Shown here piece by piece: positions 78 to 59,977 of a DNA stretch of 64,000 nucleotides. The DNA comes from a virus. Its lineage: Duplodnaviria; Caudoviricetes. The stretch is from IMG/VR virus record IMGVR_UViG_3300050334_000106, positions 10,200-74,199 of that record, one strand, 5' to 3'. Numbering within the stretch: the stretch's first letter is position 1; each line of letters starts with the position of its first letter. Position numbers and translations under genes: made by a program. Under the pieces are notes generated by a model, which had not been told where the DNA came from, made no database searches, and saw only the letters and a list, made by a program, of their open reading frames with translations.

Positions 78-1520
78 GTGGCAAGATTTATTTTAGAAGA
101 ATATAAAAATGATACAGCAGTTTTTTATAAATTATTGGAGATCATTAAAGGATTTTTAGTATATAAATCCATATATTTCTTTAGTACCGAGCAGAAAAAA
201 ACTATGAAATCAAAACTTAAAGGTACAATTGTGTATTTTGATACTCGTTTATTAATTCATGCTTTAGGATATAACCGGGACGAAGATAAACTTGCTACCA
301 GGGAACTGATACGCCTTATTTACGAAAGTGGTGGTGAGGTAAAGACTTTTTCTCATAATAAAGATGAATTAGCTGGAATCCTCACAAAATACGCCAGGGA
401 CAGAGATTCAAGAAATAGCTTGAGTCTTGATTATTTTAATGTTAATTGCTATGATGAAACTGATGTTATTCGGCTACGTGATTCACTATCAATAAATCTT
501 GAACGCATCAAAATTTATGTTGTTGATACTCCAGAATATGGTGTTGTAGATGGATCTGACGTGGATAATAAAGGGTTTTTAGATCTAAAAGAGTTAAAAA
601 ACAAACTTGAGCAAAATCTCAGAAATTTTGGGAAAACGCCAAAAGAAACTAGTATAGAGAAAGATATAGAGTCTATTTCGGCTATAAGCAGACTTAGAGG
701 AAGGGCCTGTCCCTATAGTATCGAGAATTGCAAAGCTATATTTGTAACTACTAATTCAATAATATTACGCACATTGTATGATCTTTATAGTGAACGTTTC
801 TCAAAAGGAGAAATATGTTTTGCAATAATGGAAGTTGATTTAACTGCTGTCCTATGGTTAAAGAGTTTTGACAAACAAACAAATTTGCCTTGTTTGAAAC
901 TTCTTGAAAATGCTTATGCTGCTTGTTGTCCTTCTCAAGAGGTTATGACTTCTTTTGTGGAAAAAGTCATCCAATTGGAACGTGAAGGTAAAATTTCTGA
1001 TGAAGAGGCTCTTTTATTAAGAACTCAACATTCAGTTAAACAAGATATTCTCGACCTTTCCGAGAACAATTTAAACAAAATTTCACCAGAATTAGTTATT
1101 AAAGTAAAAGAACGTTTCGTAAATGCAATTAGTAAAGAAAACCAAACTCGCATTGATGCGTTGGTTGAAGAAAATAACAAATATAAACAAACAAGAGCGC
1201 AAGCATATGATATTGCAGAGAAAGAGTCAATAGATGAAAGCTCATTATTTGAACGTAGGTTGACTCGCGCGTCTAAAATTAGCTTTGGAATCATTGGGAT
1301 TGTATCAATAGTACTAACTGTTTATAGTTGCGTTTTTACAAATATTAGCCTAATTGCTTTAAGTATTCTTATTGTAATTCCTAGCGTTATTGGACTTATA
1401 GATACTCTTAAATCTAAATTTGGTATTGTATCGAAATATATTGTGCGAGCTAAACAGAAGCGATTTGATAAATTATATAGTCAAAAGATGAAACAAATTG
1501 ATCGATACTATTCACTATAA
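78..1520 (+). CDS. PIN-like domain protein with C-terminal double TM anchor (5' end probably outside window)
   Basis: Frame is open from position 3. PIN-like motifs YFDTRLL, KDIESI and FVTTN; two hydrophobic segments near the C-terminus; AT-rich. Confidence 0.55.
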   Translation: MARFILEEYKNDTAVFYKLLEIIKGFLVYKSIYFFSTEQKKTMKSKLKGTIVYFDTRLLIHALGYNRDEDKLATRELIRLIYESGGEVKTFSHNKDELAGILTKYARDRDSRNSLSLDYFNVNCYDETDVIRLRDSLSINLERIKIYVVDTPEYGVVDGSDVDNKGFLDLKELKNKLEQNLRNFGKTPKETSIEKDIESISAISRLRGRACPYSIENCKAIFVTTNSIILRTLYDLYSERFSKGEICFAIMEVDLTAVLWLKSFDKQTNLPCLKLLENAYAACCPSQEVMTSFVEKVIQLEREGKISDEEALLLRTQHSVKQDILDLSENNLNKISPELVIKVKERFVNAISKENQTRIDALVEENNKYKQTRAQAYDIAEKESIDESSLFERRLTRASKISFGIIGIVSIVLTVYSCVFTNISLIALSILIVIPSVIGLIDTLKSKFGIVSKYIVRAKQKRFDKLYSQKMKQIDRYYSL

Positions 1521-1587
1521 TATAACTCAATATTCCAGTCTTGTCATATAATTTTTAATTTAAAAATTGAAATAGTATAATAATATT

Positions 1588-2437: not shown

Positions 2438-4000
2438 ATGCCCCGAAAAGGCGGTTCAGTAAGTATTATAACGCAAAAGAACGAAAAACTTATTCAGCAC
2501 TCAACAAGTGAGAGAGTTGCTATTTGTGAACAGTGCGGGAAACCATTCACCCAGATTTACCGCTCTGAGTACGATTCTTACACATCTTTCAGAACATGTG
2601 GCTCTTGTCGTATGGCAAATGCTCGGGGCGGTATCAACATTGCTGCTGATTATACTCCGCATTGGGGCCAACAGTTAATCCATGATTCAACTGCCAGATT
2701 TAAAGTAATTGCAGCTGGAGCTCGTTGGGGTAAAGACCGATGTTCAATCATGGAAGGCATTGATTATTTTATAAAATGCCTCAATGAGGACCGTGGTTCT
2801 GACATGGTCCCTCATGCTTTGTGGTGGATAATTGCTCCTACAGAAAAAGTTGCAAACCAGAACTGGCGTGAGCTTACGCACAACCTGCCGAAAGAAATTG
2901 TTGTTGATGTTTCCAAAACAACAAGAACCATTGAAACAGTAAATGGCGGTGTTATTGAAGTCCATTCTGCATACGATCCTGAAGCTCTGGTCGGTGTTGG
3001 TCTTGATATCGTCACAATAACAGAGGCTGCCAGAATTGCAGATATGGAAGATGTATGGTCAAACCTTGAAGCCCGTCTTAATTCTCCCGGCCGTGGCCTT
3101 GAGGGAAAAGGTGGAGTTGCACTGATCAACTCTTCCCCGCTCGGGATGAATTATTTCTATAAAATGTGGAAATGGGGACAAAAAAGCACTTCTGATTGGG
3201 ATCCCGATTGGGAAAGCTGGCAGTTCACTACTTGGGATAATCCCTATATGGCCGAGAGAGGTAATCAAATTACAAAGAACGGCCGGACATATCGTGAAAA
3301 CCTTGAACGCAGAATGTCTAAGAATAGATATCGTCAGGATTACCTTGCTGAGTTCATTGCTGATATAAATTCCGTTTTCCCGAATTACGAAAGAGTCATG
3401 ATAAAAGCACCTGCAGGCTTGACCGATGAGCAAGTCAATGAATTCTGGCGCAAATGGGAAGAACCTGAACCATTCGAAACATATACAATCGGATATGACC
3501 CGGCTTCAAAGGGTGATGGAAAACCAGCTATAATCAGAAACAGCAAAGGCCGGGTTGTTAAGATAGATCAAATGGTTGGTCTTGGTTGGGATTCACAGTG
3601 GGACAGAATAGCCTTTTATTCCCGATTATATAACGGAGCTTCAGTTAATTTTGGGCAGACTGGTATCGGTGAAACCATTGGTTCACAGCTTATAAAAAGA
3701 GGGTTAACGGTCTTCCCTATCAACGAGCAAGGCCGAAATAAGGAAAAGCTGGTTGATGATTTCTCTATTGTGGTTGAGCAGCAATGGTGTGAAATCCCTT
3801 GGAGCCAGGAAACAGAAAATCAGTTAAAAGGTTATATCTCAGTGAATCGGCCCGGACAGTCAACACAATATCATAACGGAACAGATAGTGACTACGACGA
3901 TATTGTCAGTGGTCTTTATTTTTGTTTTGCTGACTTTCAGGCTCCTGCATTGGTCTTACCAGGTATGTTCCGGATGAGCGGTGTTGTGAGGGCAAGTTAA
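2438..4000 (+). CDS. terL: Terminase large subunit (N-terminal Zn ribbon, ATPase, RNase H-like nuclease)
   Basis: CxxC...CxxC, AGARWGKD, ITEAA, NSSPLG, IGYDPAS, DYDDIV; upstream of the portal. ATG 2438 follows a GGTGGTGA RBS (ORF track starts at 2405). Confidence 0.9.
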   Translation: MPRKGGSVSIITQKNEKLIQHSTSERVAICEQCGKPFTQIYRSEYDSYTSFRTCGSCRMANARGGINIAADYTPHWGQQLIHDSTARFKVIAAGARWGKDRCSIMEGIDYFIKCLNEDRGSDMVPHALWWIIAPTEKVANQNWRELTHNLPKEIVVDVSKTTRTIETVNGGVIEVHSAYDPEALVGVGLDIVTITEAARIADMEDVWSNLEARLNSPGRGLEGKGGVALINSSPLGMNYFYKMWKWGQKSTSDWDPDWESWQFTTWDNPYMAERGNQITKNGRTYRENLERRMSKNRYRQDYLAEFIADINSVFPNYERVMIKAPAGLTDEQVNEFWRKWEEPEPFETYTIGYDPASKGDGKPAIIRNSKGRVVKIDQMVGLGWDSQWDRIAFYSRLYNGASVNFGQTGIGETIGSQLIKRGLTVFPINEQGRNKEKLVDDFSIVVEQQWCEIPWSQETENQLKGYISVNRPGQSTQYHNGTDSDYDDIVSGLYFCFADFQAPALVLPGMFRMSGVVRAS

Positions 4001-4852: not shown

Positions 4853-6277
4853 ATGGCCTTTTGGAACGACATGTTTGCAAAGAAATCAAGGGATGCTCCT
4901 CAAAACATACCGCCTGGCAGACGAACCCAAATTGGCAATGGTTTTAATACTACGCTGTCCCCTCACAGGTCAAGAACTTATGACACACTAAAAACATTGC
5001 GACATATACCAGAGGAAGCTGAAGCTGTAAACTTTCTGAAAAGAGTTAATCCTGATGTATCAATGGCTGGATGGAACTTTATTCGTTTGGCAAATCAGGG
5101 GCATGAAGCTCAGTTCTATGCGCTTGATGGCAAAACCCGACTCACTGATGTCGAAAGCCAGTGGCGTGATTTCGCAGCCCAAATAAATGAAATAAGTAAT
5201 TCCGGATTAGATGGATTGCTTGATCAGGTACATGGAAGCCATTTTTTTAGAGGTGCTATGGGATGGGAAGTCGAGGTTAATGAGCGACGTAATGATATAT
5301 ACGATATCCACCCGGTTATTCCCCAGACCATTGAATGGGAATTGCTTGATGTGAAGGGCCGAAAGAAATATGTCCCCTACCAATGGAACATGACTGAAAA
5401 GGTTTATTTAGGACCAAATCAGGCAAACTTTTTTTGGGTACCTGCAGATCCTGAAATCGGTGACCCACGCGGCACATTAAACATGACACCGGTTCTACAG
5501 GCTATTGACTTCCAGATGCAAATCCTTCAGGACCTGCAAGCCGTGCTCCATCATCAAGGATACCCCAAGAACGATGTATCCATGGATATTGAAAAGATGT
5601 ATGCCCTCTGCCCTGCTCACATAAAAAACGATGCTGTCAAGCTTGAACAGTGGTTTCAAAAGCAACTTGACAACATGATTCACTCACTTGAAACTATGAA
5701 TCCTGATGCGGATTATGTGCATTTCAGCGATACAACAATTAATACGAATCAGGGTGCCAATGCTGCTCGAAGTCTTGACGTAAGGGCTGTAAACGAATTA
5801 GTTGATACTCAAACGCTATCTGGTTTAAAACAGATGGCTATTTTTATGAACAGGAACCAAGGCGTTACTGAAAGTTGGGGCACCGTCCAATTCCGCATAT
5901 TTTGTTCGGGGATTGCTTCTTGTCAACGCGGCAGCAAACGGCTTGTTGAGGAAACCATGCGGCTCTGGTTAAGAGTTAAAGGCATTCAGGCTATTCCGGT
6001 GTTTAAGCATAACACAATTGATTGGAACTCCGAAGAACAGCGTATGACTGTTGAAAAAATGAAGCAGGAATTCTATGCGATTGCTGTATTGATGGGCTGG
6101 GTTGATAATGATGTGGCTGCCCAGGAAGTCATGAAGGTGCAAAAAGCCACCGGGAAGCCTAGTGAAAATATTCGGGCAACTTTTAGTTCGGGAGGTGGTA
6201 ACAGTGGAAATGACAAACATTCGGGGACAAAACTTCAATCAGATGTTTCCAAAGCCAACATTGATTCAATGTCCTAA
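4853..6277 (+). CDS. Portal protein
   Basis: 474 aa between terminase and protease; portal-like motifs (DPRG...PVLQAI, HQGYPK). Confidence 0.85.
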   Translation: MAFWNDMFAKKSRDAPQNIPPGRRTQIGNGFNTTLSPHRSRTYDTLKTLRHIPEEAEAVNFLKRVNPDVSMAGWNFIRLANQGHEAQFYALDGKTRLTDVESQWRDFAAQINEISNSGLDGLLDQVHGSHFFRGAMGWEVEVNERRNDIYDIHPVIPQTIEWELLDVKGRKKYVPYQWNMTEKVYLGPNQANFFWVPADPEIGDPRGTLNMTPVLQAIDFQMQILQDLQAVLHHQGYPKNDVSMDIEKMYALCPAHIKNDAVKLEQWFQKQLDNMIHSLETMNPDADYVHFSDTTINTNQGANAARSLDVRAVNELVDTQTLSGLKQMAIFMNRNQGVTESWGTVQFRIFCSGIASCQRGSKRLVEETMRLWLRVKGIQAIPVFKHNTIDWNSEEQRMTVEKMKQEFYAIAVLMGWVDNDVAAQEVMKVQKATGKPSENIRATFSSGGGNSGNDKHSGTKLQSDVSKANIDSMS

Positions 6278-53210: not shown

Positions 53211-53400
53211 TCTCTCGTATTAGTGCTGCCACTAAGAGATACAGCAATGGTATTAACACCTCACCACCTGTCGCTTCATAGCCTCGAATATCATTTGCCA
53301 TAGCTGAGAATTTAGGAACCATCAAACAGGAAATAACAAAACCGATTACAAACAATGCAGTTCTGTGGGCTTTTAAATTGTTAACCTTCCTGTTTGCCAT
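53140..53400 (-). CDS. Small membrane protein
   Basis: Two TM segments; RGYEATGGE motif. Confidence 0.6.
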   Translation of the reverse strand: MANRKVNNLKAHRTALFVIGFVISCLMVPKFSAMANDIRGYEATGGEVLIPLLYLLVAALIREIGGGYEQVKRSASGLLNNNRQEK

Positions 53401-53890
53401 TTAAGCTGCCTCCCTCTTTAAGCTGAAGCCGGATATGATCTGCCAGAAGTGCAATAAACTCTGAATTTGTGGCCTTGTTTTTGCATGCAACGGAATATCC
53501 AAACAGGGAATCTAAGGCATTATAATTTCCCCTATCCCATGCAACCTCAATAGCATGACGGATAGCCCTTTCTGCTCTGCTGGCCGTGGTGCTGTTACTT
53601 TTAGCAATAACCGGGTACAGCTCTTTTGTAACGCTTTCCATGATTTTCGGGTTCTGAACTGCCAGAACTATTGCTTGCCGCACAAAGTTAAAACCTTTGA
53701 TATTACGTGGCATACTAATTTGACTGAGAAGATTTGTGACCTGTGTTTCCAGATCACCATCGCCTATTTGAAATGTTGGAGCGTTTGCCGGAATTTGTTC
53801 TTCTTGCTTTTTACCAAAAAGACTATTGAAATACTCATGCTCTGTCATCCTGATGGTAATAGTTCCATCATCATTAAATGTCTTTTGCAT
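53381..53890 (-). CDS. Spo0A C-terminal effector-domain protein lacking a receiver domain
   Basis: IKGFNFVRQAI...TKELYPVIAK...TASRAERAIRHAIEVAWDRG. Confidence 0.92.
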   Translation of the reverse strand: MQKTFNDDGTITIRMTEHEYFNSLFGKKQEEQIPANAPTFQIGDGDLETQVTNLLSQISMPRNIKGFNFVRQAIVLAVQNPKIMESVTKELYPVIAKSNSTTASRAERAIRHAIEVAWDRGNYNALDSLFGYSVACKNKATNSEFIALLADHIRLQLKEGGSLNGKQEG

Positions 53891-53987
53891 ATGATTTACC
53901 TCCAGATTTAGTTTTGAATTGAGCTAAGATTTGGTTTTGGGCGGCTCAGCTGCAGCCTGTCCACCCTCAGCATAAAATAAAATAATT

Positions 53988-54642
53988 AGAATACCCATGT
54001 AGCTTACTCTTTGCTTTCGGGTTTGGTAGGAAGGTGATTGAAATTCATGTTTTGCGGCAAGTGCACCATTTCGCAATGCTCCGGAGCAGCATATCCTTTG
54101 CCGGTTAGCCTATTTATTACCCAATGTACGTACAGGCACCCATTTCTGGGCCGTCAAACAAACACCTTTTCAGGTCGCTTTACATCTGAACTTCAATTTT
54201 TCTTCCTTGGGGCAGATACGCTCTGCCGGGCGTCGGTAAATAATAGTCATAGGTTTTACGTATTGCTGGGATACTCCCTTTGAGCCTTGCGGCACCGTCC
54301 GGCTACGTTATCCTATCGAACCTTAAAACGGCTGGGTGAATACGGTTTAATCGCGGCTCTTTAGCTATTTACGCACCCTCGCGATATGACTTTTGATTTA
54401 CCTATGTTTTCATTTAATCCGAGCTACCGTCCTTTACTTTCGGTGTATACCCCTACTTGCATACTTCGTATAGTTCAGACGCCTTTGGCATTTTTGCCAC
54501 AACGTTACTTTCACCTAGGATGAGCCAGTCAGAACGTTGAAAGATGGATGCTCTGGGGCAGTTGTCGTACTGCCGGACGGCAAGTTCTGGTGATTGTGAA
54601 CTTACAATTTCAACCTCTACCACCACGCATCTGGTAGGCTCC
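53988..54642 (-). ncRNA. Large ornate structured RNA, ROOL-like
   Basis: No convincing - strand ORF. Long-range helix 54606-54622 with 54024-54045; many GNRA hairpins; segments resembling recalled ROOL conserved blocks. Confidence 0.75.
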
Positions 54643-54698
54643 GCCGCATTTTATTGTTTATAAAGCCCGTTCAAAATGCAGTAACTATTCGGCTTTTG

Positions 54699-54781
54699 TA
54701 GAGAAAGTGAGACTCGAACTCACATCAAGGGTCAAAGTTTGTAGTGTACACTCCCTGCACTGTCCGTTGTGCTATTTCTCC
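54699..54781 (-). ncRNA. tRNA-like RNA with an expanded anticodon arm (not a canonical tRNA)
   Basis: GGAGAAA/TTTCTCT acceptor, GCAC/GTGC D-arm, GTGAG-TTCGAGT-CTCAC T-arm; 83 nt; no encoded CCA. Confidence 0.75.
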
Positions 54782-54896
54782 ATAGTTGCCGGTCTCTCCC
54801 GGCTGGTCACCTTTGTTCTGTACAACGGTTTAAACACTGTGCGCTACACTCGTTTAATCATGGCTCTAATCTCTGCACAGGGAACGTCCTGAGCGT

Positions 54897-55042
54897 TGGT
54901 TGGAGGAACAGGATTTGAACCTGTAATTGACATGATAGCCTCTGCCGCTTGCTAATCCACCGAAGTTCGGCGACTAAGGATTTGAACCTTCAAGCATGTC
55001 TCGCCCGGCTTGGTTTAGCGTATACCGTTTCGCCATCCTCCA
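54897..55042 (-). ncRNA. 146-nt tandem, domain-swapped double tRNA-like RNA ending in CCA
   Basis: TGGAGGA/TCCTCCA acceptor + A + CCA; two TTCAAAT T-loops; two D-loop-like segments. Confidence 0.75.
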
Positions 55043-55139: not shown

Positions 55140-55283
55140 CTAAGTAAATCCTGTTGGGTAATTGGCGACATCGGAGTGATTTATGGATCGATTCATCATT
55201 TCCTGGCATGAATGCCGGCTTATTATCACGATTAAAATCATATGCAGTAAATCAAACCAACTGTAACCGAATATTGCTCCCAT
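55140..55283 (-). CDS. Small peptide with hydrophobic N-terminal half (47 aa; not in ORF track)
   Basis: AGGAGG RBS; MGAIFGYSWFDLLHMILIVIISR... Confidence 0.4.
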   Translation of the reverse strand: MGAIFGYSWFDLLHMILIVIISRHSCQEMMNRSINHSDVANYPTGFT

Positions 55284-55413: not shown

Positions 55414-55908
55414 CTATAGCTGTGTCAGTAGGAGTTTACGCTCTCTTCTGTATATCCTGCTGATTTGGGCTTGTGATAACCCAACCGACTTAGCAACATC
55501 TTTTTGTTTTTCACCAGTAACAAGTCTTTTAAGAACCGGATAATTATTGAGTTTTGCTATTATGGATTTGGCGTTTAATTCACCGTCAAAATCATGTTCA
55601 TAACCCAGAGAATCCATTAGGGTGACTGTCTCATCTGCACCTTCAATGAATGAATCCAGCGAAAGCATATTTAAATATTTCTTTTGTTTTCTCATAAAAC
55701 AGCCGATTTCGTTTGAAATTACCCTTATTGCGTATGTAGCAAAGGCAAATCCTTGTGACTCATCAAATGTTTTACATGCCTTCCATAGGCCAATACGTGC
55801 TTCTGCAAGAATCTCGTCATACAGATGCGGATAACTGGTAAACCATTTCTTTGCGACATATGTAGTTAGTTTGACGTTATTATGATAGAATTCTAGAGCT
55901 TTAACCAA
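55414..55908 (-). CDS. Phage sigma-70-family factor (sporulation SigE/F/K-like)
   Basis: ARIGLWKACKTFDESQGFAFATYA...EI...RK; SLDS; QKDVAKSVGLSQAQISR. Confidence 0.88.
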   Translation of the reverse strand: MVKALEFYHNNVKLTTYVAKKWFTSYPHLYDEILAEARIGLWKACKTFDESQGFAFATYAIRVISNEIGCFMRKQKKYLNMLSLDSFIEGADETVTLMDSLGYEHDFDGELNAKSIIAKLNNYPVLKRLVTGEKQKDVAKSVGLSQAQISRIYRRERKLLLTQL

Positions 55909-55966: not shown

Positions 55967-57085
55967 TTAATTTGTATAATTGCACTTTTTCATTTTCTTT
56001 GAGAGCCAGTCAAGGCCTTTAGGAGTGACAAATACTTGTGTCCTTTGTTCGATTACGTCGCCTTTTTTGATAGGATTTTGCTTATGTACGAAATAACCAC
56101 TATCTACAAAGTTTTGATATGCTTCATAATCGCCACCTTTGCGGAACAATATTTTTTCAATGGTTAAGATTTTAAAGAGATTGTTTCTGCCAATACCCTT
56201 TATGTTTAATGTTTTGGCGGTTTCCTCGACAGTGAGATTGCCCTCTGAATTCATAAATGAATCAAACGAATTCGCTTTAGGAAGTAATTTTGCGTTTTCT
56301 TCCGCCAAATCAGCTGCAAGCCTGAGAGCTTCGGGTAATGTCTGTGGAATATTGAATTGCGGTTGAGTTTGTCCGAGAAAAGCAGCTGCAAGTACATCTT
56401 TTGCTTTAAGTTGGTATTCGATCAGCTTATCCCTAACTTCCGGATTTACCTTTGCTGGATTTATACCTGCAAGCCATAGTGGAAGAAATTCAAGTTCAAT
56501 AACAAAAGCGTTCTGCTTACCACCGTTTGAAGGTACCCCCAATATCATGGTGCCCTTTGAAATTGTTATATGTTCTCTGAGTTTGGCCCTTTGATTCTCG
56601 GAGTCGATACCTAATCCATTGCATATGTGATTGACCGAAACATATATTTTTCCTGTTTCATCATCTTTGACAGCGAGGAGATTATCTCCATTAAACTCAA
56701 CTTGCTTTACCATTAATCCTGCCACTACTTGTCCCTCCTTTTTGTTTTGAATTCCAAAGCTGATATTAATTGCACTTTCAACCTTATCCATAAGTTCAGT
56801 ACCTAGGTGACCCACATATTCTCTCAGTCTGCATTTATCGATTGTCCGGATCTGTTCCATGCAGACAATTGAATTTTCTCTTAAGCCACAACCGTTAATC
56901 TCAATATGTGTAGGAAGCTTTGGTTTATCTAATCGAGAGGTCATTGTAGCCACAATAACAGTTGAGCTATATTTATTACCAATATCATTCTGAACAATCA
57001 GTACAGGTCTGACACCGCCCTGCTCGGAGCCTATGTATGGATTGAGATCTGCGTAGTAGATGTCGCCGCGCTTTATTTCGTGCAT
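55967..57085 (-). CDS. MazF/PemK RNase domain fused to phage antirepressor (Ant N-terminal + KilAC)
   Basis: RGDIYYADL.P..GSEQGGVRPVLIVQND...EQIRTIDK.RL, then VEFNGD...GLG, then PQTLPEALRLAADL...GRNNLF. Confidence 0.9.
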   Translation of the reverse strand: MHEIKRGDIYYADLNPYIGSEQGGVRPVLIVQNDIGNKYSSTVIVATMTSRLDKPKLPTHIEINGCGLRENSIVCMEQIRTIDKCRLREYVGHLGTELMDKVESAINISFGIQNKKEGQVVAGLMVKQVEFNGDNLLAVKDDETGKIYVSVNHICNGLGIDSENQRAKLREHITISKGTMILGVPSNGGKQNAFVIELEFLPLWLAGINPAKVNPEVRDKLIEYQLKAKDVLAAAFLGQTQPQFNIPQTLPEALRLAADLAEENAKLLPKANSFDSFMNSEGNLTVEETAKTLNIKGIGRNNLFKILTIEKILFRKGGDYEAYQNFVDSGYFVHKQNPIKKGDVIEQRTQVFVTPKGLDWLSKKMKKCNYTN

Positions 57086-57099
57086 GACCTCAACTCCTT

Positions 57100-57423
57100 T
57101 CATAACTTTGATATCTTTTGGGCTTCTTGATAGGCTTTAATGAAGATTGCCGCTATTTTTTTAGCTCTTTCAATTTCGCTTTCTTTAATTGACATGGTAT
57201 TTTTATTAAGAATGACCATAACAAACTGACTTAATGATTGCTGCAATTTATCTATGCCATATTTACGATAGTGATTATATTCAGGAATAATACTTTTGAG
57301 CTTTGGCTTCAATTCCTCTTTTACATATTTGTGCCATGCTGTCATGCCTTTTTTCTCTGCCTTGATTTCTTCGAGGATTTCAGCTTTGATTTGTTCTCTT
57401 TCTTCTAAGGTCAAAGTGTTCAC
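57100..57423 (-). CDS. Hypothetical protein
   Basis: RBS; directly upstream of the MazF-Ant gene. Confidence 0.6.
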   Translation of the reverse strand: MNTLTLEEREQIKAEILEEIKAEKKGMTAWHKYVKEELKPKLKSIIPEYNHYRKYGIDKLQQSLSQFVMVILNKNTMSIKESEIERAKKIAAIFIKAYQEAQKISKL

Positions 57424-58849: not shown

Positions 58850-59977
58850 ATGATTATTACTGAATACAAACAGGGATCTAAAAAGCTTTTTAAATGTCGA
58901 TTCTGGTATTATAAAAATGGTGCCAAAAAAAGTAAGTGCAAACAAGGCTTTGAACGAAAAAAAGATGCTGAACGATGGGGAAACTCTGAAAAAGACAGAC
59001 TTGAAGGCCTTGAAATTGGCGCCGACAAAACAAAAGTAAAAGATTTTCTTGAACGTTGGATTAAAACAAAAGAGGATAAAATATCTCCAACAACATATCG
59101 CGGATACACGGTAAACATAAATCACATCAATAATTACATTGGAAACAGCCTAATTTTCAAACTTAAACTTATAGATATTCAAGAAATGGCCGACCAGCTT
59201 TCTAAAAAAGGTTTAAAAAAGAGAACAATTTCATACGTTATACGGACTCTTCATGTGGCTTTTGAATATGCCATTGAAAATGAAATAATGGTTAAAAATC
59301 CGTGCAATGGCGTTCAGCTTAAAGAAGATGAACGAAAATTTGAGTACAATATTTATAGTGCTGATGACCTTAGCAATTTAATTTTATCCCTCCGGGAACA
59401 GGAACATTACATTTATCCTGCCGTGTTATTAGGAGCAATGCGCGGTCTAAGGCGAGGTGAATGTCTTGGGCTCCCCTGGAGTGAAATTGACTTCGATAAG
59501 GGTATTGCCCACATTAAAAACAATTATGTAATAGTTGACAAAATAGAATATCATAAGCGCGTAAAGACTAAAGAATCCGATAGAACGATAGACATTAGTG
59601 GGTTTCTCGCTGCTGAATTGAAGGCAATAAAAGAACGGAATCAAAAGAATGGTATAATACAGACTTATGTATGTGAAATAGATGGACATCTCCCTGACCC
59701 TTCCCACATCTCCCGTGCACTGAAACAGTTCCAGAAGGCAAACAGCTTACCTATCTGTCGTTTTCATGATTTAAGACATACATTTGCTATGTTGCAGATA
59801 GAGTGCGGTACAGACCTAGAAACCCTAAAACGACTGCTTGGGCATAGTAAAATTGCTGTTACCGAAATTTACCTACATGAAAACATGAATATGAAGAAAG
59901 CAGCAAGTGCTAAAATAGACAACATATTAAAATTTGAGTGTGACAAAAGTGTGACATTTTCAGAAAAAAACGACTAG
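58850..59977 (+). CDS. int: Tyrosine integrase
   Basis: GLRRGE, FHDLRHTFA, LLGHS...EIY. Confidence 0.95.
   Translation: MIITEYKQGSKKLFKCRFWYYKNGAKKSKCKQGFERKKDAERWGNSEKDRLEGLEIGADKTKVKDFLERWIKTKEDKISPTTYRGYTVNINHINNYIGNSLIFKLKLIDIQEMADQLSKKGLKKRTISYVIRTLHVAFEYAIENEIMVKNPCNGVQLKEDERKFEYNIYSADDLSNLILSLREQEHYIYPAVLLGAMRGLRRGECLGLPWSEIDFDKGIAHIKNNYVIVDKIEYHKRVKTKESDRTIDISGFLAAELKAIKERNQKNGIIQTYVCEIDGHLPDPSHISRALKQFQKANSLPICRFHDLRHTFAMLQIECGTDLETLKRLLGHSKIAVTEIYLHENMNMKKAASAKIDNILKFECDKSVTFSEKND

Follow-up and report, generated by a model that had tools for sequence, protein, structure and literature searches.

Modular structured RNAs, best read as new and narrowly distributed, beside tRNA-like genes in the early arm of a clostridial prophage

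Large structured phage RNAs encoded beside tRNA genes, such as ROOL and GOLLD, which assemble as RNA-only homo-oligomeric nanocages, are abundant, and to our knowledge their function has not been established. The locus analysed here raises the question of whether a prophage early arm encodes another RNA of this kind. The window, a 64,000-nt stretch of an IMG/VR provirus in which prophage DNA has ~42% G+C and the host DNA on its flanks ~31%, had been described from its letters alone as carrying one ROOL-like RNA of ~600-650 nt on the minus strand, starting at 54642 and closed end to end by a 599-nt helix. Part of this description stands, as there is ornate, structured, minus-strand RNA in the early arm directly downstream of tRNA-like elements, but a single RNA closed from end to end is not supported: in related prophages the RNA falls into three modules, each closed locally and found independently of the others.

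The RNA block lies on the minus strand inside a 1.5-kb gap of the early arm, between the upstream gene of a phage sigma-70-family factor (55414-55908, minus strand; Pfam Sigma70_r2, PHROG 351) and a downstream gene for a Spo0A C-terminal DNA-binding domain, Spo0A_C (53381-53890, minus strand; Pfam PF08769, E = 5.8e-36). The early-arm gene order takes in the integrase (58850-59977, plus strand) and a MazF-antirepressor fusion (55967-57103, minus strand), with recombination genes coming after the Spo0A_C gene. Within the gap, a conserved 47-codon ORF (55140-55283, minus strand) separates the sigma-factor gene from two tRNA-like elements, also on the minus strand, of which the one at 54900-54962 scores 21.8 bits with the Rfam tRNA model and the other, tL2 (54699-54781), scores 44.8 bits.

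Direct searches for relatives of the gap returned little. BLAST gave no match among 50,697 GenBank phage records, and a sample of 400 genomes of the class yielded nothing relevant. IMG/VR was scanned with three patterns, exact or degenerate, for 0 matches, and a pattern scan of JGI metagenomes gave 6 matches in two sequence groups, all unrelated and alike in the pattern alone. In the order to which Ruminiclostridium hungatei belongs, BLAST over 149 genomes turned up partial matches in two, G032 and G069. Sigma-factor and Spo0A_C homologues served as the productive leads to contigs with the same prophage layout, and the relatives total 14 related prophage loci, including an R. hungatei prophage; the loci of more distant Spo0A_C relatives (L004-L012) are devoid of the modules. 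Below, W denotes the window copy, L-numbers related loci and G-numbers genomes.

Gap-by-gap pairwise comparison of these loci revealed sharp block boundaries. The conserved RNA starts at 54581 and not at 54642, because L031, L043 and L044 match the window from 54581 onward (88%, 92% and 80% identity, respectively) and not upstream of it; 54582-54642 is part of a separate, poorly conserved segment, X (54582-54698, minus strand), which contains small local hairpins and is present only in W, L029 and L042. Module D5, a self-closed multi-helix RNA of ~178 nt (54404-54581, minus strand; alignments A5 and A9, covariance model R1), is carried by eight phages (W, L031, L043, L044, L042, L029, L033 and G069), and module Mid, an optional extension of ~172 nt found only downstream of D5 (54232-54403, minus strand), by five (W, L031, L042, L043 and L044). 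A punctuation hairpin, H1 (54204-54231, minus strand), and the ~187-nt core of module D3, whose first base it abuts (54022-54208, minus strand; alignments A4 and A8, model R2), occur in ten: W, L031, L043, L044, L042, L041, L029, L026, L030 and G032. D3 is found without D5 or Mid in L026, L030, L041 and G032, D5 alone in L033 and G069, and D5 together with D3 in L029; where Mid is missing after D5 (L029, L033, G069), a hairpin directly follows D5 in L029 and L033. L042 has D5 and Mid split from D3 by a 93-codon ORF (2884-3165), and L030 has an HNH/AP2 endonuclease gene (5175-5594) inserted after D3. None of the three modules is present in L028, L032 or the R. hungatei prophage (L002), in which a 186-codon ORF without a family match (3288-3848) replaces them. 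As far as these loci can be read, the gap behaves as a hot spot of cassette exchange with protein genes inserted at module boundaries, and the comparison shows the predicted modules to be swapped as cassettes among related clostridial prophages. The trio may still act as one unit, because in four phages D5, Mid and D3 run on without interruption, at 80-92% identity and with the same boundaries throughout.

The surroundings of the block have features of their own. Downstream of D3, a weak hairpin (CCC...GGG) is followed by a U-rich tract (53969-54021, minus strand), and the 3' end of the island may lie here. A scan for consensus terminators and promoters was negative over the block and did not call this hairpin and tract either. 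Both are kept in the relatives compared, including L028 with no D3, and in L030 they come after D3 and before the inserted HNH gene. The leader at 53891-54021 is common to most Spo0A_C-type relatives and contains a further hairpin (53939-53966, minus strand) with a conserved GCTGCAGC loop, the stem of which differs among W, G032 and L042 with pairing retained. The phage Spo0A_C protein consists of the DNA-binding domain alone, without a receiver, and its nearest non-phage relatives are host Spo0A proteins; Spo0A being the master regulator of sporulation, the phage protein may mimic or block the host sporulation decision. The product of the 47-codon ORF, called in 7 relatives (5 aligned) with 49-60% identity to the window copy, is small and hydrophobic, with the pattern MGAIFGYSWFDLL...NHSxVxxYPxGFT. 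In the 55967-57103 product a P22-type antirepressor (P22_AR_N + KilAC) is fused with a MazF/PemK endoribonuclease domain, and no adjacent MazE was seen in the window; L032 is the reverse, with a MazE-like gene and no MazF domain. An RNA antitoxin for this fusion was considered and dropped, because phages with near-identical MazF fusions, such as L028, have no modules. G069 is a Mu-like prophage with a Mu Gp27 homologue. Its D5 follows a NusG-paralogue gene at a distance of ~230 nt (L022 6171-6665 and 6898-7077), and the possible ribosome-binding sites of the next ORFs come ~20-65 nt after it, a position that hints at a link to transcription elongation control.

The assertion that the block is non-coding is upheld. 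Each sense frame of 54022-54581 on the minus strand contains 7-15 stops and shows no codon periodicity, and in relatives the substitutions are spread evenly over codon positions and the indels measure 1, 2, 5 and 10 nt; a small ORF in the block was considered and dropped because it has no coding signal. Fold z-scores are -2.2 for D5, -2.05 for Mid, -3.0 for H1 with D3 and -2.9 for the whole block; the full 655 nt originally proposed give -1.44 (single sequence).

Compensatory change in the relatives is most extensive in the two outer modules, shared ancestry inflating the counts in so small and close a set of relatives (effective numbers of sequences 1.15-1.29, at which the shuffle control overstates significance): D5 in A5 (5 sequences) has 45 pairs, 17 of them compensatory, with 93.8% of cells paired, 0/500 shuffles as high and 0-3 compensatory pairs in slid controls, and D3 in A4 (6 sequences) has 56 pairs, 11 compensatory, with 96.1% paired, 0/500 shuffles as high and 1-5 in slid controls. 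The picture for D5 is the same with eight sequences. Eight of its pairs are mainly G.U, which on the opposite strand would read A.C, and therefore fit RNA on the minus strand only. With covariation well above both controls, D5 and D3 are thus shown, as predicted folds, to be structured minus-strand RNA. Model R1 scores D5 at 163-212 bits in 8 phages and model R2 scores D3 at 182-237 bits in 10; run over the same 149 genomes of the order, the two models recovered only G069 and G032, plus an H1-like hairpin in G101.

D5 opens with H1' (54557-54574), a variant of H1. Mid is closed by GGTAAATCA/T(G/T)ATTTACC and is nearly invariant, the informative changes being limited to one hairpin pair (GC/AU/CG) and a GNRA loop (GCAA/GAAA/GUAA). 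In D3 a long closing stem, in which AGGAAG..TTGAAGTTCAG pairs with CATGAAyTTCAA..CTTCCT, encloses a four-way junction and is followed by RCCA. One arm of D3 ends in a hairpin (~54085-54100, minus strand) whose loop is self-complementary in all three variants, CCGG, CAUG and CGUG (wobble), and could be a site of RNA-RNA dimerisation. A canonical 11-nt GAAA tetraloop receptor in D3 was dropped as a candidate because CCTAAG varies among relatives. In the RNAalifold fold of the four full-length copies, D5, Mid, H1 and D3 all close within themselves, the sole long-range element being an unsupported 4-bp helix, so that D5, Mid and D3 are shown, on predicted structure, as three separately folding RNA modules in succession.

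This local closure bears on the helices from which a single RNA had been deduced. The complementary segments are all present on the minus strand where they had been placed, and several of the local ones are borne out by the relatives: four of the six pairs of CAACGTT/AACGTTG change on both sides, and ACCT-GAAA-AGGT and GCC-GCAA-GGC have invariant stems with the GNAA loop kept (GAAA, GCAA, GGAA in the former; GCAA, GAAA, GTAA in the latter). CGGC/GCCG and ATCGCG/CGCGAT are invariant and so give no covariation, the former being compatible with pairing, and CATAGGT/ACCTATG loses two pairs in L031. The long-range helices do not hold. For the 599-nt closing helix (54622-54606 with 54045-54024), the 5' strand is present in only 3/10 D3 carriers, whereas the proximal strand AAGGAAG..TTGAAGTTCAG (54208-54186), with which its 3' strand pairs locally, is present in 10/10. 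That 3' strand reads GAAC or GAGC in every relative and GAAT in the window, a change that strengthens the local pairing (G.U to G-C) and breaks the distal one (A-U to A.C). The distal strand has local partners of its own, TGGTAG with CTACCA at 54629-54634 and ATTGT/ACAAT in a local hairpin of segment X. The proposed GTCTGAACT/AGTTCAGAT pair likewise dissolves, each strand sitting in its own local helix: GTCTGAACT in D5 helix 6, with compensatory changes, and AGTTCAGAT in D3 helix 3, which varies almost on one side only. The energy of the end-to-end duplex was matched in 82/500 shuffles and that of the best long-range duplex anywhere in 54/100, so that these duplexes are no better than those of shuffled sequence. 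A convincing closing helix was in this case a chance match removed by relatives, which is a caution for reading structure from a single sequence.

What the modules share is the hairpin at their boundaries. In the window H1 has the form GCCCG-[stem ending GA]-GCGTA-[TC stem]-CCA, the sole strict match in the 64 kb, and the base after its CCA is the first base of the D3 closing stem. The general form, GyCCG-[stem ending GA]-GCnTA-[TC stem]-CCA-AG, marks module boundaries in 13 relatives as well as in the window, with 11 different stems, all perfectly paired: before D3, after D5 in L029 and L033, and before the leader in R. hungatei and L032. Four of the seven pairs of the H1 helix (A4 helix 1) are compensatory. 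The D3 closing stem is in turn followed by A/G-CCA in 10/10 copies; H1 is without a discriminator base between stem and CCA, and D5 is without RCCA. In G101 a DUF1256 (YyaC-like) gene ends in its stop codon immediately before a near-identical hairpin of the H1 type, GCCCG-GTGGGA-GCATA-TCTCAC-CCCA (L046 ~1510-1545, minus strand); this prophage region is unrelated and also carries an antirepressor gene, and the H1 motif is therefore wider than the D5 and D3 modules.

Two known systems invite comparison with H1. In lambda-type nut sites, boxB is a hairpin bound by protein within the early operon. H1 is similarly short, its pentaloop and closing pairs are conserved on a variable stem, and it is repeated in an early operon, but an antiterminator resembling N or Q was not identified, the loop sequence is unrelated and the flanks of H1 are conserved up to the stem. 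The other comparison is with phage tRNA islands and the substrates of RNase P. Bacterial RNase P cleaves hairpin substrates, reading and pairing with a 3' RCCA, and its non-tRNA substrates include hairpin model substrates and pre-4.5S RNA (PMC11143913). The gap likewise has putative stable-RNA genes in tandem, CCA or RCCA after stems and a CCA abutting the next module, but none of the tools used sees a tRNA shape in D5, Mid or D3, and H1 differs in its missing discriminator base.

The tRNA-like neighbours are themselves unusual. tL2, with 44.8 bits, is above the Rfam tRNA cut-off of 29 bits and has normal acceptor, D and T arms, with an oversized anticodon arm, 22 nt where the model expects 11; ARAGORN accepted neither element in the window and called tL2 homologues 'tRNA-???'. 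tL2 is ~90% conserved across 7 phages, with an encoded ACCA end in several, and ends 117 nt upstream of the D5-Mid-D3 block. The order of the two elements is swapped in L030 and L032, and the equivalent gap of L033 carries a real tRNA-Ser.

Membership of known families was examined with Infernal. Against the 4227 families of Rfam 15, cmscan of the window matched only tRNA at curated cut-offs, and at E<=10 with permissive filters the 1.3 kb at 53700-55000 gave tRNA-like matches and no ROOL, GOLLD or other family. The ROOL model RF03087 (cut-off 99.1 bits) had no match in the whole record, a result of little weight as the control genomes were equally without one, and seven related loci matched tRNA in Rfam 15 and neither ROOL nor GOLLD. 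The ROOL-like blocks of the preliminary description therefore find no backing in any search, and the block belongs to neither ROOL nor GOLLD; the fallback of that description, a new class, survives, the modules being absent from Rfam and covariation present. The likeness to ROOL is one of setting and size. ROOL RNAs occur in prophages, often near tRNA genes (PMC5737381), and D5, Mid and D3 similarly make up large, ornate, non-coding prophage RNA adjoining tRNA-type genes, with 560 nt against ~580 nt for ROOL if the block is one RNA. ROOL, however, has one intertwined fold of mean 581 nt with six multistem junctions as well as three pseudoknots (PMC5737381; bioRxiv 10.1101/2024.12.08.627333), its 5' and 3' regions being intertwined and co-evolving (bioRxiv 10.1101/2024.12.08.627333), whereas the block consists of three serial, locally closed and separable domains without a covariance-model match, seen in no more than about a dozen prophages, all clostridial. 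GOLLD has a constant 3' domain and a variable 5' part (bioRxiv 10.1101/2024.12.08.627333), and here too a phage RNA beside tRNAs has a conserved 3' and a variable 5' part (D3 in 10 phages, D5 in 8, Mid in 5), a pattern that is not itself membership. Unlike GOLLD, many examples of which exceed 800 nt, the block has 560 nt, no Rfam match, and 5' modules that some phages lack altogether or carry with a gene between them and the 3' module.

Several explanations have to be weighed against these data. A highly diverged member of ROOL, beyond detection by the RF03087 model, would account for ~560 nt of prophage RNA beside tRNA-like genes and for the ROOL-like blocks named in the preliminary description; this reading is effectively refuted by the absence of a match at E<=10 over the 1.3 kb, in the whole record with the ROOL model and in the seven relatives, and by domains that are separable, unlike the intertwined regions of ROOL. 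It is highly improbable that the block is a feature of the DNA, either what is left of decayed genes or a miniature transposable element bounded by inverted repeats at its termini. Segments do come and go among relatives, and the supposed closing helix might pass for such terminal repeats, but the repeat lies off the module boundaries, for which the transposable element was dropped, and is missing in most carriers; no coding remnants are present, and strand-specific G.U pairs with compensatory changes argue for selection on RNA structure. The one-RNA proposal, in revised form, makes D5-Mid-D3 a multidomain RNA of ~560 nt like ROOL or GOLLD, possibly assembling into RNA-only multimers, with the shorter forms reduced or decayed. 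The contiguity of the modules in four phages, with the same 5' boundary and 80-92% identity, is in its favour, as are a size and tRNA-like setting resembling those of ROOL (PMC5737381), the GOLLD-like constancy of the 3' domain against a variable 5' part (bioRxiv 10.1101/2024.12.08.627333) and the D3 loop that is self-complementary in three variants. We nevertheless regard it as unlikely: the domains close locally with no covariation-supported pairing between them, long-range complementarity does not exceed chance, other phages have D3 or D5 well conserved on its own, and L042 places a protein ORF between Mid and D3.

A further reading, which we judge unlikely, makes the modules cis-acting leader elements (processive antitermination, riboswitch-like or mRNA-stabilising) that govern how far transcription reads through into the Spo0A-domain and replication genes, with H1 as a protein-binding hairpin akin to boxB. 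All modules are in operon orientation upstream of a gene, D3 directly precedes the weak hairpin and U-rich tract, D5 ends ~20-65 nt before a ribosome-binding site in L033 and G069, and in G069 it comes after the NusG paralogue; moreover, the H1-like hairpin of G101, from a prophage region that is unrelated, comes directly behind the stop codon of a gene, and H1 combines a conserved loop with a variable stem, which is often a property of protein-bound hairpins. The modules are, however, dispensable, in that L028, L032 and the R. hungatei prophage keep the flanking genes and the leader without them, and in L030 and L042 other genes lie between the modules and their supposed target. No alternative terminator or antiterminator pairing was found, and a gap that also contains tRNA and tRNA-like genes suggests genes for stable RNAs.

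D5, Mid and D3 are on the best reading new, narrowly distributed structured RNAs, and we give about even chances to 54022-54581 being the distal part of a modular prophage RNA island that is co-transcribed with the tRNA-like genes and probably cut into separate RNAs. On this model the island would be transcribed together with the early lytic operon as far as the weak hairpin and U-rich tract at 53969-54021, and the host tRNA-processing machinery would cut the modules into separate stable RNAs. Because the CCA of H1 abuts the D3 stem, which is acceptor-like, and RCCA follows that stem, one RNase P cut at the H1-CCA/D3 junction could make two ends, the 3' end of H1-CCA and the 5' end of D3, and the RNAs so released would act in trans during host takeover. 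A bolder extension, which we hold to be quite improbable, has D5-Mid-D3 as a new modular class of large phage RNA, matured by RNase P at this junction, whose released modules mimic tRNA ends and either decoy or titrate tRNA-directed enzymes or defences of the host, or assemble by way of self-complementary loops into RNA-only complexes like those of ROOL and GOLLD.

The feature is thus real with its boundaries redrawn, and comprises new RNA families of narrow distribution in a niche of known type. They are carried by about a dozen prophages, with one module each in 2/149 genomes of one clostridial order, which keeps their broader significance modest unless they prove to have a function. The locus adds unrelated families of structured RNA to the genomic niche of ROOL and GOLLD beside tRNA-type genes, in the form of exchangeable cassettes with a common punctuation hairpin, whose CCA and RCCA ends suggest a concrete and testable tie to tRNA processing.
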